A program made the translations under genes and the position numbers. From an uncultured Verrucomicrobiota bacterium (GTDB lineage Bacteria; Verrucomicrobiota; Kiritimatiellia; RFP12; UBA1067): a DNA stretch of 64,000 bases. Location: contig CAMAHK010000003.1 in assembly GCA_945834475.1 (NCBI GenBank), positions 900 through 64,899 of the forward strand, written 5' to 3'. Positions 740 to 48,082 of the stretch are shown piece by piece; positions within the stretch are counted from its first letter, which is position 1, and every line of letters begins with the position of its first letter. The notes below the pieces were generated by a model. That model was given only the letters and a program-made list of their open reading frames with translations, was not told where the DNA came from and did not search any database.

Positions 740-754
740 TTTGACGAATCCCCC

Positions 755-2566: not shown

Positions 2567-2571
2567 GTTGA

Positions 2572-13900: not shown

Positions 13901-15116
13901 GCCACGAGAGCAGCGCGGCGAGCTGGACGCGCAAGCGCGCGTAAGTGACGCCGCTCTTCGCGAGGCGGTCGTTGTCGTGCGTTTCGGCGAAGTGGACGAG
14001 CGTGCCGAACTTCTCGGACCGCGCAATCGCTCCGGGCAGATACCACTCGAACGCGCCGCGGTCGTAGGTCTGGAAGATTTCCGAATACGCCCAGTCGAGA
14101 TTCGCCTCGGCGAGAAGCGCGTCCGTCACCTCGAGCTTGCCGCCGAGGCCCTCGAGCATGAAGACCGTGTCGGGATACTCCTCGCGGACACGCGCGACGA
14201 TGTATTCCCAGGTCTTGAGCGGGATCATGTACCCCGCGTCACAGCGGAAGCCGTCCACGCCATTCCGGCACCAGAAGAGGAAGACATCCGCCATGTAAGC
14301 GCGGAGTTCCGGCTTCGAATAGTCGAGCTCGACAAGGTCCGCCCACTTGACACCCCACGCGCCCGGCGAATGGAAGCGTCCGTCGGCCTCATGCGAGAAC
14401 CAGTCCGGATGATGCGTCTGCAGCGTCGATGCCCAGCCCGTGTGGTTCGCCGGCAGGTCAACGAAGAAGAGTCCCTCGCGGGCATGGACGGCGTCCACAA
14501 GCTCGCGGAACTGATCGAGCGGCGTCGCGAACTCGTCGAACTCGGCCATCGCCGGATCGACCGAGAAGAAGTCCGTCGCGGCGAACGGACACCCATACTC
14601 GCCCATCACCGCGTACGTCGTCGGCACGGGGAACGGCGGCAGCGTCTGAATGATCTTGAAGCCCATGTCGCCCATGATGAAGTCGAGCTTGCGGGCGACG
14701 GCACGGAACGAGCCAAACTGACGCGGGAAGACCGTGTAGATCGAGTTGTTCGTGCGCGTGTCGGCGCTCTCGACCTTGACGTGCGTGTTCGGACCCTCCG
14801 GCCACTCGGGTACGTTCGAGCCCTCCGGGAAGAAACAAGCCTTGCCAGAGAAGATACCGACCTCATTGAGCGGAATCGTCACGTGAAAGACGCCCGGCGC
14901 CGTCTCGGCCATCGGGATATCGGTCCACGCCCGCGCGAGCGGCGTCTCGCCGCGCTCGGTCTCGGCGATGATCTCGCGACGGCGGATGCGCGCGTTGCCG
15001 AGGTTCGTACGGAACGCGGCGCGTCCCTTCCGCGGCGCATCGAGGGTCAGGGTCACGTCAAGGGAATCACCGCGCCATTTGAGAATGAAGTCGTTAGTCG
15101 AGGGGAACTGGGTCAT
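10902..15116 (-). CDS. Bifunctional-type glycogen debranching enzyme (N-terminal GH13 alpha-amylase-family domain plus C-terminal GH133 amylo-alpha-1,6-glucosidase/GDE_C domain)
   Basis: 1404-aa ORF. GH13 signatures are GFRCDAGYMIP, FMLEGLGG and FAETHDN. GDE_C signatures are GYPWFLDWGRDTFI and GTIWAWPFPLY. It is interrupted in-frame by at least five palindromic repeat copies and one simple-repeat array. Confidence 0.85.
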   Translation of the reverse strand: MTQFPSTNDFILKWRGDSLDVTLTLDAPRKGRAAFRTNLGNARIRRREIIAETERGETPLARAWTDIPMAETAPGVFHVTIPLNEVGIFSGKACFFPEGSNVPEWPEGPNTHVKVESADTRTNNSIYTVFPRQFGSFRAVARKLDFIMGDMGFKIIQTLPPFPVPTTYAVMGEYGCPFAATDFFSVDPAMAEFDEFATPLDQFRELVDAVHAREGLFFVDLPANHTGWASTLQTHHPDWFSHEADGRFHSPGAWGVKWADLVELDYSKPELRAYMADVFLFWCRNGVDGFRCDAGYMIPLKTWEYIVARVREEYPDTVFMLEGLGGKLEVTDALLAEANLDWAYSEIFQTYDRGAFEWYLPGAIARSEKFGTLVHFAETHDNDRLAKSGVTYARLRVQLAALLSWQGAWGMANGVEWYATEKIDVHGKNDLNWGASNNMVPLISRLNAILSTHPSFANASHLEVVTRGEGNTLAVVRTVAVSATGADKVLILANLDCANGATIAWDAAKFPGGEVTDLITGERRYLSGKEFLKPGEVLCVEEVPGVTSRRGADTEVLSQSAVTAPRREVTPGTRHTFHWVYPRDARRQVCVPENQLLEVSAPHRFRLEIVDPATGKTIRAYRSVPANLSSSTNLSTSNLNLITFDAPHYKGDGTACRRLVFKMTVYAAHATTRTVSELLIPPRSRQAKVKLSLMGEEVRKNPLMRTILSNGEGAAAQLRVAWGSIASQYDATLAANPNPDVPSDRLNLWARTRCWLQREGYVRELDMKCVTRFTADPAGRFATWDFRVPCGMGRETAFAFTLALEKGNVARLTVTRGDAGEDDVGDQVRLVFRPDIEWRSFHATTKAYGGAEGLFREKTVPRCVSPAAGNGDGLGDAACGCLASLGCSGETHRGTAAGTSAGFDFAPYGETFAMRVVNGAYHHEPEWIYNVSHAEEAARGQDGSGDLYSPGWISADLKVGETAEILGGLNTVPPSVLAGGVATGVLESAAAEKQPSEATQPKAARGTVSFATALAQSLDLFIVKRDDLKTVIAGYPWFLDWGRDTFIFMRGMIAAGKIEDSVRILQAFAAFEENGTLPNIIYGKTAGNRDTTDAQLWFIRCVQEVSQVPGVTSRRGADTEALSQSADTTPRREVTPGTISTLKKTCESIVDHYISGTPNGIHMDPESALIWSPSHFTWMDTNYPACTPRIGYPVEIQALWISALRFLGRTELAEKALASVTKYFKVGGEGLGDAAGETHRGTGYYDCLAAPNGEPAALAKPEDTIRPNQLFLITLGVLDDKSILAATEELLVPGGVRSLNAEHPMYRGVYAGDEDTCRKPAYHNGTIWAWPFPLYAEALAMTKSCSKEVALQLLATAVENVNAGCLCHVSENADGDAPHAQKGCTAQAWSDSELLRVWLKLGGK
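11392..11429. repeat. Class-1 element, solo arm plus GTCTCCAAGCCC tail (in the debranching enzyme gene)
   Basis: GTACCGCGGTGCGTCTCGCCCGCGGCGTCTCCAAGCCC, translated as GLGDAAGETHRGT. Confidence 0.85.
11704..11795. repeat. Class-1 related 92-bp nested palindrome, copy 1 (in the debranching enzyme gene)
   Basis: Perfect 23-nt terminal inverted repeats GTACCCGGCGTGACCTCACGCCG / CGGCGTGAGGTCACGCCGGGTAC. Each arm is itself a palindrome (GGCGTGA-CC-TCACGCC). It is translated as VPGVTSRRGADTEALSQSADTTPRREVTPGT. Confidence 0.9.
12097..12203. repeat. Class-1 element, 107-bp doublet, type 2 (in the debranching enzyme gene)
   Basis: GTACCGCGAGCGGCCTTCGGCTGCGTCGCTTCGCTCGGCTG ... GCCGGCGAGGACGCTCGGCGGTAC. 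The first 55 nt are identical to the copy at 15374. Confidence 0.9.
12433..12539. repeat. Class-1 element, 107-bp doublet, type 1 (in the debranching enzyme gene)
   Basis: GTACCGCGGTGCGTCTCGCCC ... GGGCGAGACGCACCGCGGTAC are perfect 21-nt inverted termini. The internal module CAGCCGAGCGAAGCGAGACAGCCGCAGGCCGC is the inverse of the module in the type 2 copies. Confidence 0.9.
13194..13240. repeat. GAGGTT-type simple repeat inside the debranching enzyme gene
   Basis: GAGGTTGAGGTTAGAGGTTGAGAGATTGGTTGAAGACGAGAGGTTGG, translated as ANLSSSTNLSTSNLNL. Confidence 0.7.
13399..13490. repeat. 92-bp nested palindrome, copy 2 (in the debranching enzyme gene)
   Basis: It matches the copy at 11704-11795 at 88 of 92 positions by hand alignment. 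It is translated as VPGVTSRRGADTEVLSQSAVTAPRREVTPGT. Confidence 0.9.
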
Positions 15117-15165: not shown

Positions 15166-16119
15166 TTATTGCCAAAGGGATTTGAGATAGGCGAGGCCTG
15201 CGGCGAGTTCGGGTTCGGTGATGCCGGCGTGGGGTTCGAAAACGATGTGGCGCACCGTTTCGGCAAGCGGTTTCAGCGCGGCAAAATCGACCTTGCCCTG
15301 TCCCGGCGCGAGATGGTCATCGCCTCCGACCGAGTCGTTGATGTGCAAGCCCAACACCGTACCGTCCAGCCCCGTACCGCGAGCGGCCTTCGGCTGCGTC
15401 GCTTCGCTCGGCTGTTTCTCGGCCGCGGCGTCTCCAAGCTCCCCCGTACCAGCACCGCGGGCGAGGACGCTCCGCGGTACGAAGTTATGCCGAACAAAGT
15501 CATGCCCCGTGTCAAACCAGGGCTTCACCCAGTCGCCGCAAAGCTGACCGATCTCCCATTCGGCGGGGAAGCCCTCGAGATACGGCAGGTTCTCGAGCCC
15601 GAGCGTCACCTTGTTCGCCTCGAGGTCAGGCACAAGCGCGGCGAGTTCCTTCTTCGCAATGTCAATCATCTTGAGGCCGCGCTTCACGCGGCGACTGAAG
15701 TCCCAACGCGAGAAGCACCCGCGGCACATCACACGGCCGAGATGCAGGACAAGCGCGTCGGCCCCCATCTCCGCAGCAAAGCGGATGTTCTTGCGAATCT
15801 GGAACTGAGCCATCTTCCGCGCCTCCTCGTCGAACGAGGCGAGGTGGTAAAGTTCGGGATACCCCTGCGGTGCGGAAATCGGGACGGGACAAAATGCGTG
15901 CACAGACCCGACAGGCATCTCATCGAGCCGCGCCTTGAAGCCCTTCACTTGGAAATCCGTCGTATGGAAGCCGAGCTCCAACGCCTTGAACCCCAGACGG
16001 AGCGCCATATCGACAATCTCCTCCCCGGACTCCAGACGCCGATTGCACCAATTAGTCGAGAGCGCGAACGTCGCGCTCCACCGATTAATCGTCCCATTCG
16101 TCTTCCCGCTTTCTGTCAT
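15166..16119 (-). CDS. Sugar phosphate isomerase/epimerase (xylose isomerase-like TIM barrel)
   Basis: 317-aa ORF with ALELGFH ... ADALVLHLGRV ... LGLENLPY pattern. It carries a 107-bp repeat element at 15374-15480. Confidence 0.75.
   Translation of the reverse strand: MTESGKTNGTINRWSATFALSTNWCNRRLESGEEIVDMALRLGFKALELGFHTTDFQVKGFKARLDEMPVGSVHAFCPVPISAPQGYPELYHLASFDEEARKMAQFQIRKNIRFAAEMGADALVLHLGRVMCRGCFSRWDFSRRVKRGLKMIDIAKKELAALVPDLEANKVTLGLENLPYLEGFPAEWEIGQLCGDWVKPWFDTGHDFVRHNFVPRSVLARGAGTGELGDAAAEKQPSEATQPKAARGTGLDGTVLGLHINDSVGGDDHLAPGQGKVDFAALKPLAETVRHIVFEPHAGITEPELAAGLAYLKSLWQ
15374..15480. repeat. Class-1 element, 107-bp doublet, type 2 (in the TIM-barrel isomerase gene)
   Basis: It has the same GTACC...GGTAC termini and the same internal module as 12097-12203. 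It is translated as VPRSVLARGAGTGELGDAAAEKQPSEATQPKAARGT. Confidence 0.9.
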
Positions 16120-16254: not shown

Positions 16255-18759
16255 TTACTTCTTCGCCTTGACGCCGAGGTCGGAGAGCTTCATCGAGATG
16301 ACGCGCGAGACGCCCTTCTCCTGCTGGGAGACGCCGTAGACGAGATCGCTGCCCGCAATCGTGTGCTGGTTGTGGGTGATGATCAGGAACTGCGACTGGG
16401 CGAGGAACTCCTGCAGCTGCGCGACGAAGCGGCCGATGTTCGCGTCGTCAAGCGCCGCGTCGAGCTCGTCGAGCATACAGAACGGCGCCGGCTTGATCAT
16501 GAAGATCGAGAACAACAGCGCGACGGCCGTCATCGTGCGCTCGCCGCCCGAGAGGAGCGTCACGGACTGCGGACGCTTGCCCGGCGGACGGGCGATGATG
16601 TCGATGCCGCATTCAAGCGGATCCTCTTCGTTCTCCAGCAGCACGAGGCGCGCCTCGCCGCCGCCGAAGAGCTTCGTGAACATCGTCTGGAAGTTCTTGT
16701 TCGCCGTCTCGAACGTCGAGCGGAACATCTGCCCCGACGTGTCGTTCAGGTTGCCGATGAGCTCCATGAGCTGCGCCTTCGCGGCGAGGAGATCTTCTTC
16801 CTGAGCCTTCTCGCGGGCGTAGCGCTCCTCGAGCTCGCGGCACTCATCGATGGCGACCATGTTGACGGGACCGAGCGCGGCGATTTCCGCCTGCAGGCGG
16901 CCGACGGTGCCCTCGAGCTCGTCCATCGGCGGCACGACGCCGCCCTTCCACTCGGGATCGGGCTCGCGCATCGCGGCGTCGGCGAAGAGGCCGTACTCGT
17001 CCTGCAAATGCTCGAAGACATTCTGGCGGCGCATATTCGCCTCGGTCGCCTGGACCTCGAGCTTGCCGCGGAAGTCACGCGCCTGGTCGAGCGCGCCGCG
17101 CTTCTGCGAGACCTGGGCATCCGCCGCCGTAATGCGCTGCAGCATCTCGGCGCGCTTGCCGCGCTCGTCGTTGATCGCGTCGACGTAGCTCTCGGCCTTC
17201 TGCTTGAGCTCGTCGAGCTGATCGAGGAGATCGCCGCTCTCTTCCGTCAGGCGGGCCATCGCGTCCTCATACTCGTTGATCGTCGCCTCACGTCCCTTGA
17301 TCACACGTTCGAGCTCGTCGTGACGCAGCTGGGCGGACGCCTCCTGCTGTCCGATGAACGAGAGCTCCTGCTCCATCTGGCTCGTCGCGATGCGGCATTC
17401 GGTCAGCTTCTGCGACGCGGGGATGTGCTGCATCTCCGCCGCACGGAGCTCGTCCTCGGCCTGCGTGACGACGGCCATCAGGTCCTCGCGCTTCATCATC
17501 GTCGTGACGCTCGTGCCGGCGCGCCAGGTCTCGACCGCGCCGTTGCGATTCACCTCGCTGTCGTTGACGAGCGTGCCCGTGCGGGTCGTCTCGGCGACTT
17601 CGCGGCGCCGCGCGGCGACCGCTTCGCGCTTCTGGTCGATCGTCTGCTGGAGGTTGTAGAATTCCTCTTCGGCGCGCGCGAGGGACTCCTTCTGCGCGGC
17701 GAGGGATTCCGTAAGGAAATGGGTCTTCTGGCTGAGCGACTCGGCCTGCATCCGCACCTCTTCGAGCTGCTGGTGCGACGCCGCAATCTCGGCCTTGTCA
17801 CGCGCGATGTACGTGCGGTATTCCTCGACACGCGTCGCATTGACGCCGATCACCTCGCGGCTGCGCTGGTACGCGCTCTCGGCCTGGGCCTGCTCGGCGG
17901 CGAGCTGCTGGAGACGGTCCTCAAGGGCGTGAACCTGCGCGTGGAGGTCCTGCGCCGTCTGCTCGGCCTCGGCGACGGTCTCCTGCGCCTCGGCGATTGC
18001 CTTGTCGATCTCGTTGCGGTTGATCGCGTTCTGCTCGAGTTCCTGATCGAAGGCGTGGATCTTCTGCTTCGAAACGTAAATGTCGAGCCCCTTGAGCTGG
18101 TCGCGGAGTTCCTTGTACTTCTGGGCCTTGCCGACCTGGCGCTGGAGGGATGCGATCTGCCGCTTCATTTCGCGGAGGACGTCCGCCTCGCGGAGAAGGT
18201 TCTGCTCGGTCTGCTCAATCTTGCGCAGGGCCTCCTTGCGATCCATCTTGAACTTCGTGATGCCGGCGGCCTCTTCGAAGACCGCGCGGCGGTCTTCGGG
18301 CTTGGACGAGAGAATCGCGTCGATCTGGCCCTGGGCCATCACCGAGTAGGAGCTTGTGCCGATACCCGTGCCCATGAAGAGATGCTGGACATCTTTGAGA
18401 CGGCTCTGCTGCTTGTTGATGAAATACTCGCCCGAGCCGTCGCGATAGACGCGGCGGGTGATCGTCACCTCATGATAGTCGGTGCCCAGTTCCTTCTCGC
18501 AGTCCGCAAACGTAATCGACACTTCCGCCGCGCCGAGGGGCTTGCGCGTGTCGGTTCCGTTGAAGACGACATCCGCTAGCTTCGAGCACCGAAGCGCCGT
18601 CGGCTTCTGTTCACCGAGCACCCACCGAATCGCATCCGAAACGTTGGACTTGCCGCACCCGTTCGGACCGACGATGGCAATCAACCCCGGATCAAAGTCG
18701 AGCCGCGTCTTGTCCGCGAACGACTTAAAGCCGAGAATTTCTAGTTGTTTCAGATACAT
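16255..18759 (-). CDS. smc: SMC-family chromosome segregation ATPase, short form without a recognisable hinge
   Basis: The N-terminal head is MYLKQLEILGFKSFADKTRLDFDPGLIAIVGPNGCGKSNVSDAIRWVLGEQ. The C-terminal head has LSGGERTMTAVALLFSIFMIKPAPFCMLDELDAALD. The ORF is only 834 aa. Confidence 0.85.
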   Translation of the reverse strand: MYLKQLEILGFKSFADKTRLDFDPGLIAIVGPNGCGKSNVSDAIRWVLGEQKPTALRCSKLADVVFNGTDTRKPLGAAEVSITFADCEKELGTDYHEVTITRRVYRDGSGEYFINKQQSRLKDVQHLFMGTGIGTSSYSVMAQGQIDAILSSKPEDRRAVFEEAAGITKFKMDRKEALRKIEQTEQNLLREADVLREMKRQIASLQRQVGKAQKYKELRDQLKGLDIYVSKQKIHAFDQELEQNAINRNEIDKAIAEAQETVAEAEQTAQDLHAQVHALEDRLQQLAAEQAQAESAYQRSREVIGVNATRVEEYRTYIARDKAEIAASHQQLEEVRMQAESLSQKTHFLTESLAAQKESLARAEEEFYNLQQTIDQKREAVAARRREVAETTRTGTLVNDSEVNRNGAVETWRAGTSVTTMMKREDLMAVVTQAEDELRAAEMQHIPASQKLTECRIATSQMEQELSFIGQQEASAQLRHDELERVIKGREATINEYEDAMARLTEESGDLLDQLDELKQKAESYVDAINDERGKRAEMLQRITAADAQVSQKRGALDQARDFRGKLEVQATEANMRRQNVFEHLQDEYGLFADAAMREPDPEWKGGVVPPMDELEGTVGRLQAEIAALGPVNMVAIDECRELEERYAREKAQEEDLLAAKAQLMELIGNLNDTSGQMFRSTFETANKNFQTMFTKLFGGGEARLVLLENEEDPLECGIDIIARPPGKRPQSVTLLSGGERTMTAVALLFSIFMIKPAPFCMLDELDAALDDANIGRFVAQLQEFLAQSQFLIITHNQHTIAGSDLVYGVSQQEKGVSRVISMKLSDLGVKAKK

Positions 18760-21789: not shown

Positions 21790-23112
21790 TCATTCACGCC
21801 CGTTTGACATCGTTTTCGGCAAAACCAAACTGACACTCGCGTTTTCGGGACGGAAGATTTCCGCCGCCACGGCCTGGACGTCGGCGGCTGTCACGCGCTT
21901 GATGGCCTCGACCTGTTCTTGCGGCATCACCAGGCGGTCAAACGAGAGCGCGGTGTTGCCGTAGAAGAAGAGCTTCGACGTCACCTTCTCGTGCGAGAGC
22001 CGGAAATTGCCAACAAGGAACTCCTTGATGCGCTTGAGCTCCGTCACCGAGACACGCTTCGCCACCAGCTTCTGCAACTCCCGGTCGATCGTCGCACGGG
22101 CCTTGTCGCCCTTCGCGGCGTCGAGTCCCGCCGTGATCGAGAGAAAGCCCGCATCCTGAAAGAACTGCATCCGCGAGGAAATGTCATAACTGAGTCCGCG
22201 CTTCTCGCGCACTTCCTGAAAAAGCCGGCTTGACATGCCACGTCCGAGGATCGCGTCCAGCACCGTCGCCGCGTACTTGCGCTCGTCGTGGATGCCGAAC
22301 GTGCGATACCCGAGCGCGAGCTGCGCCTGATTGACATCCTTGCGCGCGACGACTTCGGGGGTCGGAGGAAGGAGAACTGCGGAAGAAATGTTTTTATTCC
22401 GACGCGACAGGAGTGTCGCGTCCCCGGCTGGCGTGGACAATGGGGACGCGACACTCTTGTCGCGTCGCAACAAAGATTTCCCACCTCTTTCCCCCAGAGC
22501 CCGCGCGACGACGTCAAGCGCCATCTCGGGCTCGAATGCGCCGACGACGACGGCTATCGTGGCCGTCGGCAGGTAGTGCGCCTTGATATACTGGCGCAAG
22601 TCGTCCGGCGTCAGCGGTCCGAGCGACTTCGCACTGCCGGCGACGGGACGCCCGAGAGGATGCTTCGGGAAGAGCGCGGCCTGCAGGTTCTCCATCGCGA
22701 CGCAGTCCGGCTCGTCCGCATACATTTTGATTTCCTCGATCACGACATCCTTCTCGCGTGCGAACTCGTCAGCGGGAATCGTCGCGTTGAGGTACATGTC
22801 GGAAATGATGTCGACCGCCTCCTCCAGATACTCGCTCGGCAAATGCACGAAGTAGCAGGTCGATTCCTCGCCCGTACAGGCGTTGAAGTTGCCGCCACGT
22901 CCTTCGATCGCCCGCGTGATGTCGATCGGGCGCCGCGTGGGCGTCCCCTTGAAAAGCATGTGTTCGATGAAATGCGAAATGCCAGCCGTCTTCGCCGTCT
23001 CATGGCGCGAGCCGGACGCAATGAAGAGTCCGAACGCAACGGACTCCGCTTCACAGGGAACCAGCACGACTCGAAGGCCGTTGGATAGAATGTGTTGCTG
23101 AGGACGATTCAT
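21790..23112 (-). CDS. M16-family (pitrilysin-like) zinc peptidase
   Basis: HFIEHMLFKGT zinc-binding motif (HxxEH) in a 440-aa ORF. It is interrupted by a 68-bp palindromic element at 22400-22467. Confidence 0.9.
   Translation of the reverse strand: MNRPQQHILSNGLRVVLVPCEAESVAFGLFIASGSRHETAKTAGISHFIEHMLFKGTPTRRPIDITRAIEGRGGNFNACTGEESTCYFVHLPSEYLEEAVDIISDMYLNATIPADEFAREKDVVIEEIKMYADEPDCVAMENLQAALFPKHPLGRPVAGSAKSLGPLTPDDLRQYIKAHYLPTATIAVVVGAFEPEMALDVVARALGERGGKSLLRRDKSVASPLSTPAGDATLLSRRNKNISSAVLLPPTPEVVARKDVNQAQLALGYRTFGIHDERKYAATVLDAILGRGMSSRLFQEVREKRGLSYDISSRMQFFQDAGFLSITAGLDAAKGDKARATIDRELQKLVAKRVSVTELKRIKEFLVGNFRLSHEKVTSKLFFYGNTALSFDRLVMPQEQVEAIKRVTAADVQAVAAEIFRPENASVSLVLPKTMSNGRE
22400..22467. 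repeat. Class-2 68-bp nested palindrome (in the M16 peptidase gene)
   Basis: CGACGCGACAGGAGTGTCGCGTCCCC ... GGGGACGCGACACTCTTGTCGCGTCG. Each arm contains GCGACA..TGTCGC. It is translated as RRDKSVASPLSTPAGDATLLSRR. Confidence 0.9.
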
Positions 23113-32168: not shown

Positions 32169-33139
32169 AACCCCATCAGCTTTTTCGCCGCCGCAAATTG
32201 CGCGGACAGATCGACCTTGCGCGATCCGTCGACATAGCCGTCAGCGCGCAAGTTCTCGACGAAGCGACGAAACTTGTGCGAACCCGGATTCAAGTTGTCG
32301 AGCGCCACAACCTCGGCCGAACCAAAGGTACAGGCCTCCGAGAGCATCCCCGTCGACTCGGCCGTCACGTAAAGCCGCTTCGCGAGTTTCACGAACGCCG
32401 GAATCGGATTGAAATGATCCTTCGAATAGAGAAGCTTGTAGTCCCACGGATACGAGTCGATCAGCGCCTCGATCTCCGGCGGCGTCCGGCGCGAGGTTGT
32501 GACACAACGGAGAATTGGCGAATTGCCGAATTGGCGAATTGCCGAATCGGCGAAGATTGCATCCAATTCGCGTTTCATCCAGTCGACGGACATCGTCGAG
32601 CACTTATTGGGGCCGCCGACGATCACGGCGACGAGCGGACGCGCCGCGACCTGGTCGGCGGTGAAGCCGCTGTGGTTGTAGAACGCCGCGACGCCCTTCT
32701 CGTAGAACGCCGCATCGGCCGCGACGAGGTTCGCCGGAATCTCGATCACGTTCGGCGCCGCCGCGGGACGGTCGAACGCCGGCGCGAGCACGCAGTCGAA
32801 CGACGCGATGTCATACCCGCGCGGATAGAGAACGGCGCCGCACGTGACGCCCAGCTTCTTCGCCAGCGCCTTCGCGGCATAGAAGGTTCCCGACCCGGTG
32901 CCGATCACGGCGACAAACGCCGTACTGCGGCGCGTCTCGCCCGCGACGCTCTCCCACCCCCTCACCAGACCAAGCGCCCTAATGCCCAGGCGGTCGCACG
33001 CATACGAGAGCGCCTTGTGGAACTTGGACTTGAACTGCACGGGAACGATCTCGAACTCACAACCAAGCGCACGGGCAAAGGCCTTGGACTGGTTTTCGTG
33101 TCCGGCCTTGCCGTCAGTCAGAATCAGAACCTTAGACAT
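32165..33139 (-). CDS. ELM1/DUF1022-family protein (putative glycosyltransferase-like)
   Basis: I prefer the ATG at 33139 (MSKVLILTDGKAGHENQSKAFARALG). The track start is 33157. It contains the octamer-repeat insertion at 32511-32560. The family call is from memory. Confidence 0.65.
   Translation of the reverse strand: MSKVLILTDGKAGHENQSKAFARALGCEFEIVPVQFKSKFHKALSYACDRLGIRALGLVRGWESVAGETRRSTAFVAVIGTGSGTFYAAKALAKKLGVTCGAVLYPRGYDIASFDCVLAPAFDRPAAAPNVIEIPANLVAADAAFYEKGVAAFYNHSGFTADQVAARPLVAVIVGGPNKCSTMSVDWMKRELDAIFADSAIRQFGNSPILRCVTTSRRTPPEIEALIDSYPWDYKLLYSKDHFNPIPAFVKLAKRLYVTAESTGMLSEACTFGSAEVVALDNLNPGSHKFRRFVENLRADGYVDGSRKVDLSAQFAAAKKLMGL
32511..32560. repeat. Octamer tandem array (AATTGGCG/AATTGCCG)n (in the ELM1-like gene)
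   Basis: AGAATTGGCGAATTGCCGAATTGGCGAATTGCCGAATCGGCGAAGATTGC with 8-nt periodicity. It is translated as IFADSAIRQFGNSPILR. Confidence 0.85.
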
Positions 33140-35445: not shown

Positions 35446-37962
35446 TTAGAAAAACGTCATCTGCCCTGGGAGTTCCGAAAGTCGCTTGCGGGGCTTCTTC
35501 ACGACCTTGGGTCGGTTCACATCGAGTTCATTCGCCTCGAGGTTCTTGAGAATCTCCTCGGCGCGGCCGACGACCTCCTGCGGGAGCCCCGCCATCGCGC
35601 CGACGTGAATGCCGAAGCTCTTCTCGGCGATGCCCGGGACGATTCGCCGCAGGAACACGACGCGTCCGCCCTCGTCCTTCACCTTCACCGTGTAGTTCTT
35701 GATGCCCGGGAACGTGTCCGCGAGGTCGGTGAGCTCGTGGTAGTGCGTCGCGAAGAGCGTCTTCGCCTTCGCGCTCGCCTTGCCGTGCAGATACTCCGCG
35801 ACCGACCAGGCGATCGAGATGCCGTCGAAGGTCGAGGTGCCGCGGCCGATCTCGTCCAGGACGATCAGCGACTTCGGCGTCGCATTGTTGAGGATGTTCG
35901 CCGTCTCCTGCATCTCGACGAGGAACGTCGAACGTCCGCGCGCGAGGTCGTCCCCGGCGCCGATGCGCGTGAAGACACGGTCCAGAACGCCGAGCCGCAT
36001 CGCCGCCGCCGGCACGAACGAGCCCATCTGCGCCATCACCGCGATTGTCGCAACCTGACGGATGTACGTCGACTTGCCGGCCATGTTCGGCCCCGTGATG
36101 AGGATGATCTGGTCCGTCGTCGTGTTGAGGAACGACGAGTTCGGCACGAACGGCTCCGCATCGGGGAGCTGCTCGATAATTGGATGGCGTCCGTCGACGA
36201 TTTCAAGAACATCCGAGTCGTCGACCGTCGGCCGCACGTATCCCGCCGCCAGCGCACGGTCCGCCAGCGCCAGCGTCGCGTCGAGCGCCCCGAGCGCAAG
36301 CGCTGTCTCCTGAATCTCGACCGTCTTTGCCGCAATCGTCTCGAGGACGCCGCGAAAGAGCGTCTGCTCGATCGCGATCGCCTTGTCCTGCGCCCCGACG
36401 ACCTTGCGCTCGTATTCCTTCAGCTCCTCCGTGACGTACTGTTCGCCCGTCGTCAGCGTGCGGCGCCGCACATAGTCGGCCGGCACCTGGGGGATGAACG
36501 ACTTCGGCACTTCGATCATATAGCCGAACGCCGGCACGCGCTTCACCTTGAGCTTCGAAATGCCCGTGCGCTGCTGTTCGCGCGCCTGGTACTCGGCAAG
36601 CCACTGATGCCCTTCCGCCGCAATCGCGCGCAGCTCGTCAAGCTCTCCATTGTAGCCCGAGGCAATGTACCCGCCGTCCGCGAGCATCACCGCAGGGTCT
36701 TCGCAGATGGCCTTGTCGATGAGATCGACAAGAGCGGATTGTGGCGTTAGATTTTGAACAAGCGATCTGGAGATCGCTTCCCCTGTACCGCGGTGCGTCT
36801 CGCCCGCGGCACTCTCCAAGCCCCCCAAAATCTCCGGGATCGGCCGCAAGCTCGCCGCGAGGGCCTTCACATCGCGCGGATTCGCGCGGAAGGCGTCGAC
36901 CTTCTGGATGAGCCGCTCCAAATCCCTGACCCCCGACAGCAATGTGCGCAGCGACGCGAGCGCTCCGCGGTTCTCGACAAACGCCTGCACGGCGTCGAGC
37001 CGCGCGTTGACGTCCGCCGCCCGTGCGAGCGGCCGCAGAATCCAGTTGCGCATCGTGCGCGCACCCATCGGCGTCTTCGTGACGTCGAGAACGCCGAGAA
37101 GCGACGCCTCCTTCGGCACGTCGCCGACCGGAATGAGCTGCAGGTGGCGGAGCGTTCCAACGTCGAGAACCAGCACGTCGTCCGACTGCCGCAGCTGAAT
37201 CTTGCGCACGTGCTCGAGCGAATGATGGAGCGTCGTCCCGACATAATAGAGAAGCGCCCCCGCCGCCGAGATGAGATCGGTCTTGTCCGTAAGTCCGAAG
37301 CCATCAAGCGACAGGACCTTGAAGTGCCGCGTCAGGCAATCGAGTGCCGCATCAACCGAAAACGTCCAACTCTCAATGGGCGTCGCCTGGCGCGACAAGA
37401 GTGTCGCGCCCCCGTTATCCGTCCCAACCGGGGACGCGACACTCTTGTCGCGTCGGTCAGGAACAATCACCTCTGCCGGATGATACCGCTCCAGCGCCTC
37501 GTCGAGCTTTTCCTGCGCGGCGAACTGTTCGACGATGAACTCGCCCGTCGAGAGATCGAGAAGCGCGAGCCCGAGACCCGACACCGCCGCGGCGTACGTG
37601 TTCGTCGTCTCGTCGAGAAGCCCGTCCTCCGTCACCGTACCCGGCGTCACGATGCGCGTCACTTCGCGGCGGACAAGTCCCTTCGCCGTCTTCGGATCCT
37701 CGACCTGATCGCAGAGAGCCGCCGTCTTGCCGGCACGGATCAGCTTCGCGAGATACGAGTTGAGCGCGTGATACGGCACGCCGCACATCGGCTGGTCACC
37801 GCGGTGCGTGAGCGTCGCGCCTAGGATCGGCGAGGCGATCACCGCGTCCTCGCCGAACATCTCGTAGAAGTCGCCGAGGCGAAACATCACAATGGCCCCC
37901 GCCGGCACCTCGCGCTTGATCGCGAGGTACTGGCGCATCAGCGGTGTCAGTTCGGCGGCCAT
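35446..37962 (-). CDS. mutS: DNA mismatch repair protein MutS
   Basis: 838 aa with TPLMRQYL, GPNMAGKST Walker A, DEIGRGTST and HYHELT. It carries two in-frame repeat insertions (36785-36823 and 37391-37455). Confidence 0.97.
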   Translation of the reverse strand: MAAELTPLMRQYLAIKREVPAGAIVMFRLGDFYEMFGEDAVIASPILGATLTHRGDQPMCGVPYHALNSYLAKLIRAGKTAALCDQVEDPKTAKGLVRREVTRIVTPGTVTEDGLLDETTNTYAAAVSGLGLALLDLSTGEFIVEQFAAQEKLDEALERYHPAEVIVPDRRDKSVASPVGTDNGGATLLSRQATPIESWTFSVDAALDCLTRHFKVLSLDGFGLTDKTDLISAAGALLYYVGTTLHHSLEHVRKIQLRQSDDVLVLDVGTLRHLQLIPVGDVPKEASLLGVLDVTKTPMGARTMRNWILRPLARAADVNARLDAVQAFVENRGALASLRTLLSGVRDLERLIQKVDAFRANPRDVKALAASLRPIPEILGGLESAAGETHRGTGEAISRSLVQNLTPQSALVDLIDKAICEDPAVMLADGGYIASGYNGELDELRAIAAEGHQWLAEYQAREQQRTGISKLKVKRVPAFGYMIEVPKSFIPQVPADYVRRRTLTTGEQYVTEELKEYERKVVGAQDKAIAIEQTLFRGVLETIAAKTVEIQETALALGALDATLALADRALAAGYVRPTVDDSDVLEIVDGRHPIIEQLPDAEPFVPNSSFLNTTTDQIILITGPNMAGKSTYIRQVATIAVMAQMGSFVPAAAMRLGVLDRVFTRIGAGDDLARGRSTFLVEMQETANILNNATPKSLIVLDEIGRGTSTFDGISIAWSVAEYLHGKASAKAKTLFATHYHELTDLADTFPGIKNYTVKVKDEGGRVVFLRRIVPGIAEKSFGIHVGAMAGLPQEVVGRAEEILKNLEANELDVNRPKVVKKPRKRLSELPGQMTFF
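36785..36823. repeat. Class-1 element, solo arm (in mutS)
   Basis: GTACCGCGGTGCGTCTCGCCCGCGGCACTCTCCAAGCCC, translated as GLESAAGETHRGT. Confidence 0.85.
37391..37455. repeat. Class-2 nested palindrome, second copy (in mutS)
   Basis: CGCGACAAGAGTGTCGCGCCCC ... GGGGACGCGACACTCTTGTCGCGTCG. The spacer looks inverted relative to the copy at 22400. It is translated as RRDKSVASPVGTDNGGATLLSRQ. Confidence 0.9.
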
Positions 37963-41007: not shown

Positions 41008-41751
41008 TCAAGGCTTGAAATAAAGGCGGCAGTGACAGAGTCCATGGTAGTTTGGATCTCGGAGCTGGCCCTTGAACTCGTCGCAGGGGCAGAAGAACTC
41101 CGGCAGTTTCTGCAGCCGGCACGGACAGAACGCGTTCTTGCGCACGACGCCCTGCCGCACCATCGCCGCGAGCTTCGCGTCTGGATTGAGCGTCACGCCG
41201 TTCTTCGCAAAAAGCTCACGGATCTCCGTTGACGACTCCTTCGTCCGGGGATACGCCTTAAACGTCACCAGCTTCTTCAGCTCGTCAATGTCCTTCCACT
41301 TCGGCAGTCCCTCGACCGAGTCCTCGCCGATGATTAAGTAGAGGTGGAGAGAAGAGGTGGAGGTGGACAAAGGAGCATATTCTTCCTTGATTTCCCGCAC
41401 GGTGTCGATCGTGTACGAGACGCCGCCGCGCTTCAACTCGCGGTCGTCGACCACCACGCGCGGATCGTCGGCAAACGCCGCCTTCACCAGCTCCAGCCGA
41501 TCCCAGGGGAACTCCGTACCGCGGCCCGCGGCGTTGTCTTCCGTACCGCGGTGCGTCTCGCCCGCGGCGTCACCAAGCCCGCTGTTACCCGCCGCGGGCG
41601 GGACGCACCGCGGTACGGTCTTGAACGGACTCACGTTCGCCGGAATGACGATGAGCTTATCGAGCTTCAGCTCCTCAAGCGCCTTGCGGGCGACCGTCAG
41701 ATGCCCGAAGTGAATCGGATTGAAGCTTCCCCCGTAAATGCCAATGTTCAT
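41008..41751 (-). CDS. nadD: Nicotinate-nucleotide adenylyltransferase fused to a C-terminal ferredoxin:thioredoxin-reductase-catalytic-subunit-like Cys motif
   Basis: I prefer the ATG at 41751 (MNIGIYGGSFNPIHFGHL). It has ESSTEIR (ISSTxIR-like). The C-terminal part is FCPCRLQKLPEFFCPCDEFKGQLRDPNYHGLCHCRLYF (41029-41127). It carries two repeat insertions. Confidence 0.85.
   Translation of the reverse strand: MNIGIYGGSFNPIHFGHLTVARKALEELKLDKLIVIPANVSPFKTVPRCVPPAAGNSGLGDAAGETHRGTEDNAAGRGTEFPWDRLELVKAAFADDPRVVVDDRELKRGGVSYTIDTVREIKEEYAPLSTSTSSLHLYLIIGEDSVEGLPKWKDIDELKKLVTFKAYPRTKESSTEIRELFAKNGVTLNPDAKLAAMVRQGVVRKNAFCPCRLQKLPEFFCPCDEFKGQLRDPNYHGLCHCRLYFKP
41338..41368. repeat. GAGGTGGA-type simple repeat inside nadD
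   Basis: GTAGAGGTGGAGAGAAGAGGTGGAGGTGGAC on the plus strand, translated as STSTSSLHLY. Confidence 0.7.
41516..41616. repeat. Class-1 element, composite of about 101 bp (in nadD)
   Basis: GTACCGCGGCCCGCGGCGTTGTCTTCC + GTACCGCGGTGCGTCTCGCCCGCGGCGTCACCAAGCCCGCTGTTACCCGCCGCGGGCGGGACGCACCGCGGTAC. It is translated as VPRCVPPAAGNSGLGDAAGETHRGTEDNAAGRGT. Confidence 0.9.
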
Positions 41752-42586: not shown

Positions 42587-42622
42587 GCAATTCGCCAATT
42601 CGTCAATTCGTCAATTCGCCAA
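42587..42622. repeat. Octamer tandem array (GCCAATTC/GTCAATTC)n, intergenic between the S1 gene stop and the proC start
   Basis: GCAATTCGCCAATTCGTCAATTCGTCAATTCGCCAA is the reverse complement of the unit at 32511. Confidence 0.85.
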
Positions 42623-43408
42623 TTACAACTTATCAAACGCTCCCGTCCCGAAGCCCGCGTTCTTCTTCGCGTTGTCCTTCATCCACGCGGCGACCTCCTC
42701 GGCGGACTTCGCGGCCGCCTCGTCCTCGGGCGTACGCCTGAACGTCCGCGCCATGCACTCCTTGCGCGAAAGCGTCACCTTGCCCTCCTCGCGGTCGATG
42801 TGCAGGATCTTCACCGTAATCGCATCGCCGCTCTTGAGAATCGTGTTGAGGTCGTCGACGCGCTCCCACGCGACTTCACGCGCGGGGACGAGTCCCTCGA
42901 CGCCGCCGAGGTCGACGAACGCGCCGAAGTTCATGACGCGCGTCACCGTGCCGTTCAGCGTCTCGCCTTCGGTGAGCTCGTTGAGGACGGCCTCCTTGAG
43001 CGCCTCGGCCTGGAGCTCCAGGAGCTGACGGCGAGAGACGACGACGTTGAGTCCGCGGTCGTCGACCGAGTAATCGGTGACGAGAAACTCGAACTTGCGT
43101 CCGACGTACTCCGCGGCGTCCTTCTTGAACTTGTCGATCTGGCTAAAGGGACAGAACGCGCGCTGGCCGGCGATCGTCACTTCGTAACCGCCCTTCGTCT
43201 CCTTGTCGACGACGCCCGCAATCGCCTCGCCCTGCTCGAACGCCGTCTTGATCGCCGCGTTGTCATTCGAGTCGACGACGAGCGTCTTCTTCTCGGGGCG
43301 CACGAGGGACTTGTCCTCGTTGAACGCCTTGCCGAACTTGTAACCCTTGCGGATGCCGCCGAACTGAGCGTCAAGCATCGCACCGAAATCGAAAGAATTA
43401 TTATCCAT
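42623..43408 (-). CDS. S1 RNA-binding domain protein (two S1 repeats)
   Basis: GEAIAGVVDKETKGGYEVTIAGQRAFCPFSQ and GETLNGTVTRVMNFGAFVDLGGVEGLVP S1 signatures. Confidence 0.8.
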   Translation of the reverse strand: MDNNSFDFGAMLDAQFGGIRKGYKFGKAFNEDKSLVRPEKKTLVVDSNDNAAIKTAFEQGEAIAGVVDKETKGGYEVTIAGQRAFCPFSQIDKFKKDAAEYVGRKFEFLVTDYSVDDRGLNVVVSRRQLLELQAEALKEAVLNELTEGETLNGTVTRVMNFGAFVDLGGVEGLVPAREVAWERVDDLNTILKSGDAITVKILHIDREEGKVTLSRKECMARTFRRTPEDEAAAKSAEEVAAWMKDNAKKNAGFGTGAFDKL

Positions 43409-44949: not shown

Positions 44950-46755
44950 TCAGATATGCGCCGGCGTCTCAATGCCCAGAAGTCCGAGCCCCGTCTTCAG
45001 CACGTTGCCGAAAAGCGCACAGAGATGGAGTCGCGCGTTCTTCACGGACTCTTCGCTCTTTAGGATCGGCGAATTCTGGTAGAACGAGCTGTAGAGCTGC
45101 GCCGTCTGGAAGAGATAGTCCGCCAAGACGGACGGCTTGTACGCCTCCGCCGCACGAACGACCGCCCCCGGAAATTCCAGAAGCTGCAGCGCCAAACGCT
45201 TCTCCGACGGCGTCGTCACCGCGAATGCTCCCGTACCGCGGTGCGTCTCGCCCGCGGCGCTGGCCAGCCTGCTGTTACCCGCCGCGGCCGAGGGCGGCTC
45301 GCGGTACGTTCCCGCCTTCTCTAGGAGCGAGCAGACGCGCGCGTACGCGTACTGCAGGTACGGACCCGAGTTGCCCTCGAGCGCCAGCGCCTTGTCCCAG
45401 CTGAAGTCGATGTCGGTAATCGGATCGTGCGAGAGATCCGTGTACTTCACCGCGCCATACCCAATCGCCTCCGCCAACGCATCATTCCCCGTACCGTCGC
45501 TGTCCTCAGCGACAGGCGCGGTAACCGCAACCCCACCCGCCGGCTGCTGACGCGACTCGACGATCGCCAGCGACCGCTTCTTCGCCTCGGCGAGCAGCTC
45601 GTCGAGCTTGATGAGGTTGCCCTCGCGCGTCGAGATCGCCTTGCCCTGGAAGCTCATGAGCCCGAACGGCACGTGCACAAGCTTCGCCGTGACACCCATC
45701 TTGCCCGCGATATTGAACCACTGCTTGAAATGGAGCTGCTGACGCGCATCCGTCACGTAAATGATGCGCTCGGGATCGTATTCCTTCACGCGCATCTCGA
45801 CGCACGCAAGATCGCTCGTCGTGTAGTTGAAACCGCCGTCCGACTTGCGGACGATTGCGACGCCGAGTTTCTCCTCTTCGAGATTGACGACAAGCGCCCC
45901 TTCGGACTCGACGGCAAGGCCCATCTCCTGCAAACGCTTCACGACGCCCGGCATCGTGTCGTTATAGTACGACTCGCCGCGGTAGGTGTCGAACTTGACG
46001 CCCAACTTCGCGTACATGCGGTTGAACTCGGCGATTGAAATGTCGATAAACTTCCTCCAGAGCGCCAGGTTGTCGGGATCGCCCTGCTGGAGCTTCACGA
46101 GCTCCGCCTTGCAGGACTCCTTCCAGACGCCGTCCTCTTCCTTGGCCTTCGCCGCCGAAAGGACATAGCACTTCTCGAGATACGGCACCGAGAGGTTGTC
46201 GCGCTCCTCCTGCGTGAGAAGCTCGCGGTAGCCCTTGATGAGGATGCCGAACTGCGTGCCCCAGTCGCCGAGATGGTTGTCGGCGATGACCTCGTAGCCG
46301 AGCGAACGGAAGATGCGGTCGATCGCATTGCCGATCACCGTCGAGCGGATGTGGCCGATGTGCATCTGCTTGGCCGCATTCGGGGACGAGTAGTCGATGA
46401 CGATCTTCTTGCCCGCGCCGGACTGCGGAATGCCGCACTTCGACTGCGCGTTCAGCGTGGTCAGCTGGGCGTTGAGCCAGTCCGTCGAAACCGTCAGGTT
46501 AAGGAAGCCGGGCCCCGCGATCTCGACCTTCGCAAACGGGGAAGCGACGTCCACGTCGCTTGTAGGAAGACAAGCCACCACCTTCGCGGCGACCTCGCGC
46601 GGATTCGCGCGGAATTTCTTCGACAGCTTCAGCGCGTCGTTGCATTGGTAATCGCCAAACTTGGGGTCAGTCGCGGGGAGGACGCGGACAAACGAAAAGT
46701 CCTCGCCCGGGTACGCCTTCTCAAAGGCGGCCTTGATAATGTCTGTGAGTTCCAT
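44950..46755 (-). CDS. argS: Arginine--tRNA ligase
   Basis: 601 aa with SPNAAKQMHIGH (HIGH) and a C-terminal DALR anticodon-binding domain. It carries a 75-bp repeat insertion at 45233-45307. Confidence 0.97.
   Translation of the reverse strand: MELTDIIKAAFEKAYPGEDFSFVRVLPATDPKFGDYQCNDALKLSKKFRANPREVAAKVVACLPTSDVDVASPFAKVEIAGPGFLNLTVSTDWLNAQLTTLNAQSKCGIPQSGAGKKIVIDYSSPNAAKQMHIGHIRSTVIGNAIDRIFRSLGYEVIADNHLGDWGTQFGILIKGYRELLTQEERDNLSVPYLEKCYVLSAAKAKEEDGVWKESCKAELVKLQQGDPDNLALWRKFIDISIAEFNRMYAKLGVKFDTYRGESYYNDTMPGVVKRLQEMGLAVESEGALVVNLEEEKLGVAIVRKSDGGFNYTTSDLACVEMRVKEYDPERIIYVTDARQQLHFKQWFNIAGKMGVTAKLVHVPFGLMSFQGKAISTREGNLIKLDELLAEAKKRSLAIVESRQQPAGGVAVTAPVAEDSDGTGNDALAEAIGYGAVKYTDLSHDPITDIDFSWDKALALEGNSGPYLQYAYARVCSLLEKAGTYREPPSAAAGNSRLASAAGETHRGTGAFAVTTPSEKRLALQLLEFPGAVVRAAEAYKPSVLADYLFQTAQLYSSFYQNSPILKSEESVKNARLHLCALFGNVLKTGLGLLGIETPAHI
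45233..45307. repeat. Class-1 element, 75-bp doublet (in argS)
   Basis: GTACCGCGGTGCGTCTCGCCCGCGGC ... GCCGCGGCCGAGGGCGGCTCGCGGTAC, translated as YREPPSAAAGNSRLASAAGETHRGT. Confidence 0.9.
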
Positions 46756-46767
46756 AACTAGTTGAAT

Positions 46768-46776
46768 ATTCTATCA
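46768..46776 (-). promoter_or_regulatory. Extended -10 box TGATAGAAT, 12 nt upstream of the argS ATG, overlapping the dus stop codon
   Basis: The minus strand reads TGATAGAATATTCAACTAGTT-ATG. Confidence 0.45.
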
Positions 46777-47829
46777 TATTGCCGCGCGAAGTTCATCAAC
46801 CGAGCGGCAGATTTTGAGGAGATTCCAACGGCGCGACCAGTACGGGATTTCCTTCCAGTAGGAAAGGAGCTCCTTCATCCGCCCCAAAACGGGCCTGTCC
46901 CCCGAAAGTTCGCGCTGCGACGCGGCAATGTAACGCAAGAGCAATTCGCGCGAATCCGGCCGCGCGCCGAGCGCACGAACAAACGACCGACCGATCATCC
47001 TCCCCGTACCGCCGCCCGTCTCGGGCGAACAGCCGAGCGAAGCGACGCAGCCGAAGGCCGCGCTTCCAAGCACCACCTCCAGATCCCCGTTCAGCACGAC
47101 AGGCACACGCGCAGCGGCCACCACCTTCTCGCCGGCCGTCCAATCACACGCCCCTTCGTACATCTGCTTGGCCGTGCGGGCATGGATCGTGAGATGGCGG
47201 AGCGGAAATTCGTTGATGAGCGGCATCAGCTTCAGGAGTTCGTCCGTCCGATCGACCCCGAGCCGCGCCTTGATGGAGAAGTTCCCGGGACCCATCACCT
47301 CACAACCGACTTCCATCATCTGTCGAAGCACATTCGGCGTCCGCAAAATCCCCGAGCCGCGTCCCTTGTTCCGCACCATCGGAAACGGACACCCGCAGTT
47401 GAGGTCGGCAGTCGTATACCCGACGGACTTAATCCGCTTCAAACAATACCGAAGCGCCCCCGGATCCTTCCCAATAAACTGCGGCGTCACCAACACCGTA
47501 CCGCGATGCGTCTCGCCCGCAGCGCCCCCCAGCACCGTACCGCGGTGCGTCTCGCCCGCGGCGTCTCCCAGCCCCGTACCGCGGTGCGTCTCGCCCGCGG
47601 CACTCACCAGGCCCTCTCGCCCACCGCTCATTCGTCCATTCGCCAACTCGCCAATTAGCCAGTTCCCTATCTCCCGATCCTTCAGCGGATCGACTCCCGC
47701 ATTCGCGGTGATAAACGGTGTCACGGCTTCCGTGAAACCCGCCGCGGCGATCTCCGCCGCAAACGTTTCCCGAAAGCATCGAATGGTCACCCCGCGAAGC
47801 GGCGCCAGAATCAACGAACCCTCCGTCAT
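46774..47829 (-). CDS. tRNA-dihydrouridine synthase (Dus family)
   Basis: I prefer the ATG at 47829 (MTEGSLILAPLRGVT) with a GGAAGGAG SD. It has LNCGCP and IHART motifs. It is interrupted by three repeat blocks. Confidence 0.85.
   Translation of the reverse strand: MTEGSLILAPLRGVTIRCFRETFAAEIAAAGFTEAVTPFITANAGVDPLKDREIGNWLIGELANGRMSGGREGLVSAAGETHRGTGLGDAAGETHRGTVLGGAAGETHRGTVLVTPQFIGKDPGALRYCLKRIKSVGYTTADLNCGCPFPMVRNKGRGSGILRTPNVLRQMMEVGCEVMGPGNFSIKARLGVDRTDELLKLMPLINEFPLRHLTIHARTAKQMYEGACDWTAGEKVVAAARVPVVLNGDLEVVLGSAAFGCVASLGCSPETGGGTGRMIGRSFVRALGARPDSRELLLRYIAASQRELSGDRPVLGRMKELLSYWKEIPYWSRRWNLLKICRSVDELRAAI
47006..47070. repeat. Class-1 element, truncated copy with one arm and the internal module (in dus)
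   Basis: GTACCGCCGCCCGTCTCGGGCGAACAGCCGAGCGAAGCGACGCAGCCGAAGGCCGCGCTTCCAAG, translated as GSAAFGCVASLGCSPETGGGT. Confidence 0.75.
47498..47614. repeat. Three tandem 39-bp class-1 arms (in dus)
   Basis: Units start at 47498, 47537 and 47576, each GTACCGCG[A/G]TGCGTCTCGCCCGC[A/G]GC plus a 13-nt tail. They are translated as AAGETHRGTGLGD-AAGETHRGTVLGG-AAGETHRGTV. Confidence 0.9.
47627..47665. repeat. Degenerate octamer array (in dus, adjacent to the tandem class-1 arms)
   Basis: CTCATTCGTCCATTCGCCAACTCGCCAATTAGCCAGTTC, translated as GNWLIGELANGRMS. Confidence 0.7.
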
Positions 47830-47906
47830 TAAATCTCCTTCCCCACGCTTGATCCCCAGCATAATGAGAACCGCAAACGGCCCCGTACAGGTAATGGCGT
47901 GAGTGA

Positions 47907-47964
47907 TCAGTCTCATAAATCGAGATTAAAGGTCAGACCTTTTGTCTCATATTTATGAGACTGA
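47907..47964. other. AT-rich nested inverted repeat between the SWIM gene and dus
   Basis: The 14-nt perfect arms TCAGTCTCATAAAT / ATTTATGAGACTGA are separated by 30 nt. The spacer contains the palindrome AAAGGTC-A-GACCTTT (47928-47942). Confidence 0.6.
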
Positions 47965-48082
47965 CTCCACCCGACGTCGCACAATCTTCCACATTAACCG
48001 ACCATCGCGCGAGCAAGCGAATCCCAAAGCCATTAAGAATCTCTTTCTCTAGCAAGAGTATATCAAATCCAATCACCTACCT

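Follow-up and report, generated by a model that had tools for sequence, protein, structure and literature searches.

Palindromic DNA lying in frame within housekeeping genes is best known from Rickettsia, through the Rickettsia palindromic elements (RPEs; Ogata et al., 2000, Science 290:347, and 2002; summarised in PMC10969869). It has also been catalogued in Opitutus, intragenic GTAG/CGTC repetitive extragenic palindromes (REPs) being most numerous in Opitutus terrae, where dimers encode 20–30 amino acids and clusters 43–82 (PMC3733652). Miniature transposable elements with inverted repeats (MITEs) that form in-frame fusions are a further known case, with the Coxiella QMITE (PMC5896051) and, as listed in PMC10969869, ERIC and Anabaena MITEs as examples. 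Here we present a case at strain resolution from an uncultured gut member of the Planctomycetes–Verrucomicrobia–Chlamydiae (PVC) group. In a 64-kb stretch of contig CAMAHK010000003.1 (hereafter the window, to which all coordinates refer), a tRNA-dihydrouridine synthase (dus) gene contains three head-to-tail 39-nt units, the number of which differs between strains, and each unit corresponds to a single arm and inner tail of a repeat that is dispersed, forms hairpins and is similar to REP/REPIN elements. For coding minisatellites, or variable number tandem repeats (VNTRs), the comparison is with the mycobacterial interspersed repetitive unit (MIRU)-VNTR loci of Mycobacterium tuberculosis.

The host open reading frame (ORF), the three units and an adjacent octamer array are arranged as follows:

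46774–47916, minus strand: Dus-family (DusC-like) ORF of 380 amino acids, Pfam PF01207.
47498–47536, plus strand: unit U1, a degenerate arm in which G9A and G24A weaken the stem; its tail encodes VLGG, and the minus strand reads AAGETHRGTVL.
47537–47575, plus strand: unit U2, consensus core and near-canonical family tail GCGTCTCCCAGCCCC encoding GLGD; missing in the [U1,U3] alleles.
47576–47614, plus strand: unit U3, consensus core and tail GCACTCACCAGGCCC encoding GLVS.
47627–47665, no strand assigned: degenerate octamer array GCCAATTC, read in frame as IGNWLIGELANGRMS, within the enlarged loop that holds the units.

A preliminary description of this DNA had placed three head-to-tail 39-bp units at 47498, 47537 and 47576, and this is what we find. 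With Tandem Repeats Finder, an array of period 39 is detected at 47481–47601 (3.1 copies, 86% matches, score 182), and the 23-nt core GTACCGCGGTGCGTCTCGCCCGC starts at 47498 (with one mismatch), 47537 and 47576. Over both strands of the window this core occurs 13 times, compared with 0.00 expected from shuffles. Compared pairwise, the units differ at 5–7 of 39 positions, most of which are located in the 12-nt tail; at offset 39, the longest stretch of exact identity is 28 nt. Translated in the minus-strand frame, the array reads GLVS-AAGETHRGT-GLGD-AAGETHRGT-VLGG-AAGETHRGT-VL and leaves the ORF uninterrupted, as expected from the (AAGETHRGTxLGx)3 insertion first proposed; one example of a predicted tryptic peptide of the array is GTGLGDAAGETHR. 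The degenerate octamer array described beside the units is also present (47630–47665 by Tandem Repeats Finder, period 8, 4.5 copies, 75% matches), and no change in its length was seen between the strains compared. Octamer arrays of the GCCAATTC type occur in addition at 32509–32547 and 42587–42624; two of the three lie inside ORFs, giving from 3 × 8 nt a peptide with a period of 8 amino acids, and one is intergenic.

Comparison between strains, the check originally suggested for this locus, shows that the array varies in length. The contigs compared come from other pig-gut samples and are 97–100% identical to the window, most of them above 99%. They contain three, two or one units, every difference amounting to 39 or 78 nt, and eight distinct, near-identical Dus sequences (98–100% identity) with three, two or one units are found in the protein collection. 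At the DNA level the array exists in six alleles:

[U1,U2,U3], three units: the window and contig L098.
[U1a,U2a,U3], three units: contig L097.
[U2a,U3], two units: contig L096.
[U1*,U3'], two units: contigs L001 and L099.
[U1,U3], two units: Logan contigs of runs X3, X4, X5, X10 and X14.
[U3], one unit: contigs L002 and L003.

U3 is the sole unit found in all alleles, and the single unit of L002 and L003 is identical to it. L097 and L096 have identical flanking single-nucleotide polymorphisms and a common 2.8-kb upstream insertion, and they differ by exactly one unit. Derived bases are common to U1a and U2a, which indicates exchange between neighbouring units. The preliminary description had proposed an expansion of the inserted arm by slippage or unequal recombination. 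The strain-variable array supports this proposal, although recent expansion is the less favoured source of the present variation: the sequences point rather to units having been lost repeatedly from an older array of three, because units within an array diverge by 13–18% against about 0.6% between strains, three-unit arrays are found on three different flanking haplotypes and the two-unit alleles differ in which unit is missing. Contigs from RNA libraries (metatranscriptomes) cross the array in frame, on which basis we reject its removal at the RNA level.

In the family to which the units belong, a GTAC tag is combined with a GC hairpin of 6+3 bp and about 12 nt of tail; an arm measures 28 nt, or 39 nt with its tail, and doublets measure 78–111 nt. 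The window contains 19 arms at 14 sites in 11 genes. When these 19 arms are aligned, the (G)TAC tag is invariant and is followed by the 6+3-bp GC stem, in which 93.6% of the cells are paired and five cells are compensatory, a result reached by 0 of 500 shuffles. The predicted folding energy of one arm is −11.1 kcal/mol (z −3.0), and the inverted doublets form stems of about 25 and 29 bp, with −44.6 kcal/mol (z −9.9) for the one at 41539–41620. The copies in the window include single units as well as inverted dimers and clusters, and the inverted doublets noted earlier were recovered at three places, none with a strand assigned:

12431–12541: doublet enclosing a B module, within the gene for the glycogen debranching enzyme.
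41541–41618: near-perfect inverted doublet with a 29-bp stem, in a cytidylyltransferase-like gene, read as TVPRCVPPAAGNSGLGDAAGETHRGT.
45231–45308: inverted doublet lying within the gene for ArgRS and read as TYREPPSAAAGNSRLASAAGETHRGT.

The terminal inverted repeats of the doublets are about 29 nt long, and inspection of the flanks of three doublets revealed no consistent direct repeat. When contig depths are summed in four metagenomes from pig gut, the core exceeds its flanks about 300–500 times, which suggests several hundred copies per genome. An Rfam search of the window matched no family, and the repeat is therefore not a known structured RNA. Pfam matches and gene tables revealed no transposase ORF in the window or in the strain contigs. 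Exact scans of JGI metagenomes with a 25-mer from the dus flank and with the 23-nt core gave 0 matches each and are uninformative about distribution. A search of the protein collection with the repeat peptide, limited by its word index, gave four candidates, including the small ORFs P0121 and P0122 on ENA contigs of 1.5–2.1 kb, both of which encode the two-unit head-to-tail tandem AAAETARGT-GLGS-AAGETHRGT; head-to-tail arrays of arms are therefore not confined to dus. A crude 18-mer repeat screen of related dus loci found no clear REP families in those of related species, the two richest loci, which were inspected, containing mostly paralogous or tandem gene repeats.

All 19 arms, at 14 of 14 sites, lie inside ORFs that they do not interrupt. 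The 11 host genes are free of internal stops, and in nine of them, as well as in the called gene for a tenth, Pfam domains flank the insert. Besides dus, the host genes include those for ArgRS, MutS, PheRS-beta and the 1404-amino-acid glycogen debranching enzyme, a FabH-like gene, and Elm1-like, AP-endonuclease-fold and cytidylyltransferase-like genes. One reading phase is used at 13 of the 14 sites (P about 2e-5), giving TVPRCVSPAA or AAGETHRGT according to the orientation of the arm. The peptide of this favoured phase (TVPRCVSPAA...GLGDAAGETHRGT) is small and carries little charge, and the unused frames are rich in arginine (for example RTAVRLARG and RRGRDAPRYG). Stop codons can be dismissed as the cause of the bias, five of the six doublet frames being open. 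Rather, insertions in other phases would have been purged by selection against the arginine-rich alternatives, which would account for the bias.

Sequence and structural comparisons assign the host ORF to the Dus family, with a DusC-like TIM barrel plus helical domain and a predicted dihydrouridine-forming activity, in line with its first identification as a tRNA-dihydrouridine synthase. The ORF scores 86.3 bits against Pfam PF01207 (cut-off 20.4), and the closest solved structure is that of Escherichia coli DusC (PDB 4bf9, E 1e-15), whose catalytic cysteine motif DLNCGCP aligns with the same motif here; the motif is invariant across 16 orthologs. The AlphaFold2 model, computed with 16 orthologs in the alignment, matches DusC (4bfa) with a Foldseek TM score of 0.74. 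The real start of the protein is probably Met30 (codon 47827–47829), because residues 1–29 (window 47830–47916) are missing from the orthologs and have a predicted local distance difference test (pLDDT) score below 50 in the model; some gene callers skip these 29 codons and report Dus versions of 351 and 338 amino acids.

Within this fold, the three arms add 39 residues to the loop that precedes barrel strand 3. Between DPLKDRE and TPQFIGKD this loop measures 60 amino acids here and 8–12 in most dus loci, its length being readable in 62 of 83, and it reaches up to 30 in other species. A composite insertion of roughly 60 amino acids had been announced, to be placed relative to the TIM barrel; it lies before strand 3, and its excess is closer to 50 residues, given the usual length of the loop. 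A second variable loop, between NGDL and MIGRS, measures 27 amino acids here compared with 7 in the shortest orthologs, and is filled by the piece previously called 'class-1':

47004–47071, no strand assigned: arm remnant and B module ('class-1'), read as LGSAAFGCVASLGCSPETGGGT.

This piece is confirmed, being 85% identical to 12431–12498, with 47028–47061 100% complementary to both 12106–12139 and 15383–15416. AlphaFold2 models both the barrel and the helical domain with confidence, and pLDDT falls below 50 at residues 87–138 and 285–302; the array loop is thus predicted to be disordered. Both inserts directly precede a beta strand and, given the (beta/alpha)8 topology, would lie on the barrel face opposite the catalytic face. 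In Dus, the single host gene for which this comparison was made, the insert is absent from orthologs and occupies a predicted disordered surface loop.

The array is not an ancestral part of the enzyme. Neither the core GTACCGCGGTGCGTCTCGCCCGC nor the looser pattern GTACCGCGG-N10-CCGCGG was found in the dus loci of 80 related species, so the family is lineage-specific; the orthologs have unrelated inserts or none in this loop, which is short in most of them. An ancestral conserved Dus domain, considered from the outset as an alternative to an inserted repeat, is ruled out by these observations. Unrelated repeat-like peptides do occur at the same loop elsewhere, with an 8-amino-acid periodic IRTFNHPL array in ortholog P0018 and SRDRNVASPL, present twice, in P0005, making the loop a recurrent landing site.

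RPEs and the intragenic GTAG-REPs of O. terrae are the nearest parallels that we know. The repeats described here share with RPEs their character of selfish palindromic sequences lying in frame in many unrelated housekeeping genes. In both systems a conserved peptide is read in one phase per family, insertions occupy fold-compatible positions, and the host genes include some related to tRNA and some for DNA repair. What we observe, with intact ORFs and domains, a single phase and, in Dus, an insert in a loop, corresponds to the pattern of RPEs and of intragenic REPs. However, RPE-1 measures about 100–150 bp, compared with 28 nt for an arm here (39 with the tail, 78–111 as doublets), roughly one RPE in two is intergenic, compared with none of the 14 sites in the window, and the host lives free in the gut and belongs to the PVC group, instead of being an obligate intracellular alphaproteobacterium. 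Nor does the RPE pattern as summarised in PMC10969869 include in-frame arrays of head-to-tail units whose copy number is polymorphic between strains.

GTAG-REPs are similar in architecture: these are stem-loops of 20–40 nt with a conserved terminal tetranucleotide, a 5–13-bp stem and a 2–20-nt loop (PMC3733652), and they too occur as single units, inverted dimers and clusters, with several families per genome and recurrent peptides encoded by intragenic copies. The GTAC tag, in contrast, is outside the variants GTAG, GYAG, GYRG, GTRG, GTMG and GTGG given in PMC3733652. Another difference is that the window and the strain contigs contain no REP-associated tyrosine transposase (RAYT). O. terrae is likewise a PVC bacterium, with a genome of about 6 Mb; there, some 70 intragenic entries are counted for the whole genome, compared with 14 sites in 64 kb here. 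Measured against a strict REP or REPIN, the family forms stem-loops and is dispersed in many copies, but it has neither the GTAG tag nor an extragenic location.

MIRU-VNTR loci resemble the dus array in another way, since they combine dispersed units of about 40–100 bp with short head-to-tail arrays that change by whole-unit steps between strains, a change attributed to slipped-strand mispairing or unequal recombination. The dus locus has the traits of a coding VNTR, with three head-to-tail 39-nt units, a unit length that is a multiple of three and whole-unit steps between strains. Nevertheless, MIRUs lie mostly between the genes of operons and not in enzyme domains, and they are not palindromic REP-like arms. 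MITEs, finally, are also small, non-autonomous elements with terminal inverted repeats that are found within ORFs and add peptide segments, but the units here are shorter, like tagged REP hairpins, and inspection of the flanks gave no consistent target-site duplication. Intragenic selfish palindromic DNA is of an already known kind, and what differs here is the GTAC tag, the exclusively intragenic location in the window, the much higher local density and the polymorphism of units within a species.

We consider it probable that a REP-like arm entered a permissive loop and is now a coding minisatellite that changes by misalignment or unequal recombination. According to this scenario, the arm would have become established in frame in a permissive surface loop of dus, copies persisting in genes when their length is a multiple of three, their phase benign and the surface loop permissive. 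Neighbouring units, with an identical 28-nt core and each capable of forming a hairpin, would promote misalignment, and replication misalignment or unequal recombination between cores could then remove or add whole 39-nt units. As 39 is a multiple of three, every product would keep Dus in frame, and the locus would be a neutral or near-neutral coding minisatellite with one to three units among strains. Several points weigh against this scenario. None of the alleles has a unit freshly copied from its neighbour (5–7 of 39 nt differ between units, compared with about 0.6% between strains), so that recent expansion is undocumented; no actual gain of a unit was found among the alleles and no zero-unit allele among the strains compared, and gain and loss are unpolarised without an outgroup. 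The tail of U2 resembles the family consensus more than it resembles the tail of either neighbour, which would also fit an insertion from elsewhere. Moreover, the read-level evidence comes from contigs and not from raw reads, and the depth of the 'RNA' contigs is similar to that of the DNA runs, so DNA carry-over is possible.

The near-canonical tail of U2, a unit that differs from U3 at 6 of 39 positions, leads to an alternative that we regard as unlikely, namely that the array was built and altered by an enzyme of the element itself, a RAYT or IS200-like HUH tyrosine transposase cutting at the GTAC tag, each unit being a separate insertion or a product of tag processing. Di Nocera et al. (2013, PMC3733652) have proposed that RAYTs give rise to REP arrays by processing intermediates that are circular, and other modules of the family are gained or lost between strains, always net in frame (15459, 45241 and 13390–13490). 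All units also begin exactly at the invariant GTAC tag, yet such boundaries are uninformative because the register of slippage in a tandem array is arbitrary. The lack of any transposase ORF in the window and in the strain contigs argues against such an enzyme, and the loss of a unit on an identical haplotype, together with derived bases shared between neighbours, are classic signs of local misalignment.

It is very improbable, in our opinion, that the repeat peptide has been co-opted as a flexible tRNA-contacting or regulatory linker, with copy number under selection and tuning Dus activity. The strongly non-random reading phase, the retention of at least one unit in all strains compared and the transcription of the array (RNA-library contigs, at a depth similar to that of the DNA runs) could be taken in this sense; the phase bias, however, is explained by selection against arginine-rich frames, the identical peptide is found in enzymes as unrelated as ArgRS, MutS and the debranching enzyme, and copy number differs on closely related haplotypes. 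Nor is a function suggested by a segment that is predicted to be disordered, would face away from the catalytic side and is replaced by unrelated inserts or none in the array loop of orthologs. Finally, we give almost no credit to the idea that the three copies, or the shorter alleles, result from assembly collapse or expansion of the tandem repeat. All data do come from short-read assemblies, and a core at about 300–500 times the depth of its flanks tangles assembly graphs; Logan contigs of runs X1 and X2 break inside the array. Nevertheless, the units can be distinguished, their longest common run of 28 nt being below assembler word sizes (MEGAHIT k113–k141); short Logan contigs in X1 and X2 span the U2/U3 junction, and several Logan contigs pass through the array unbroken. 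The three-, two- and one-unit forms each recur across independent samples and assemblers (MEGAHIT, SPAdes and Logan), and we thus regard the array as very unlikely to be the artefact against which the preliminary description had cautioned.

The host is an uncultured bacterium of the pig gut, probably a Kiritimatiellia species. The stretch is contained in sequencing runs from pig gut; the runs listed with it also include one 'feces metagenome'. Among species-representative genomes, the nearest dus loci reach about 62% identity, leaving the species of the window without a close match there; nearly all of these loci belong either to metagenome-assembled genomes of gut origin that are labelled Kiritimatiellae/Kiritimatiellaeota or to older 'Verrucomicrobia'/'Lentisphaerae' bins. 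The window contains about 46 genes, of which almost all lie on the minus strand; a single glycosyltransferase gene (about 10022–10921) is called in the opposite orientation in strain contigs. Upstream of dus, between it and a gene with HTH and SWIM domains (window about 48000–48050), L096 and L097 have about 2.8 kb of extra small genes at their positions 272–3004, encoding DUF3791, DUF4160, DUF2442 and other proteins, and L002 lacks 51 nt there. The SMC_N/AAA ORF at 16255–18759 (834 amino acids) has a 1098-amino-acid version in L085, in which the coiled-coil region is longer by about 790 nt; overall identity is only 97.3%.

Other repeats of the window vary between strains as well. A second GTAC-tagged family is present in the debranching-enzyme ORF (10902–15116) at 13390–13490 and 11703–11797; it is a palindrome of about 95–110 nt with stem CGGCGTGA and loop CC. 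At 13390–13490 this palindrome is carried by the window and L092, and L093 and L090 have a different, A/B-type composite (net +87 and +42 nt) whose flanks coincide exactly with those of the palindrome; non-homologous repeat cassettes are thus allelic at one codon position of this gene. The B module (about AACAGCCGAGCGAAGCGAGACAGCCGCAG) occurs in some strains and is missing from others: at 15459, in the AP-endonuclease-fold ORF, L090 and L093 have 30 additional nt, and at 45241, in the ArgRS doublet, L002 has 48 additional nt of B-like sequence, both additions being in frame and inside existing elements. A third hairpin family, GACGCGACA-N4-TGTCGCGTC, has paired copies at 22401–22466 (M16 peptidase ORF) and 37389–37454 (MutS ORF), with four matches compared with 0.05 expected, and L002 has 54 extra nt at 37454. 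A motif similar to this third family seems to encode the SRDRNVASPL peptide in the dus loop of ortholog P0005.

It is tempting, if rather doubtful, to see in these elements a GTAC-tagged REP-like superfamily (A arms, E palindromes and B modules) adapted to coding sequence. Such a superfamily would be almost exclusively intragenic, occupy about one gene in four at a density an order of magnitude above that in Opitutus or Rickettsia, and be mobilised by an unrecognised GTAC-specific HUH-type enzyme, making permissive loops hypervariable both by minisatellite length change and by non-homologous cassette exchange, as at 13390–13490.

For those who work with these genomes, the array is usable as a strain-typing marker, and the repeats explain breaks in the assemblies. 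Annotators should be aware that differences in length between orthologs arise here from repeats and not from new domains. The natural series of one, two and three units also provides a probe of how far a TIM-barrel loop tolerates a disordered insertion. More generally, the dus locus illustrates that a palindromic insert, once within the fold of an enzyme, can continue to evolve in the manner of a coding minisatellite and, if the GTAC-tagged elements do form one superfamily, they would keep generating diversity in loops throughout the proteome of this bacterium.

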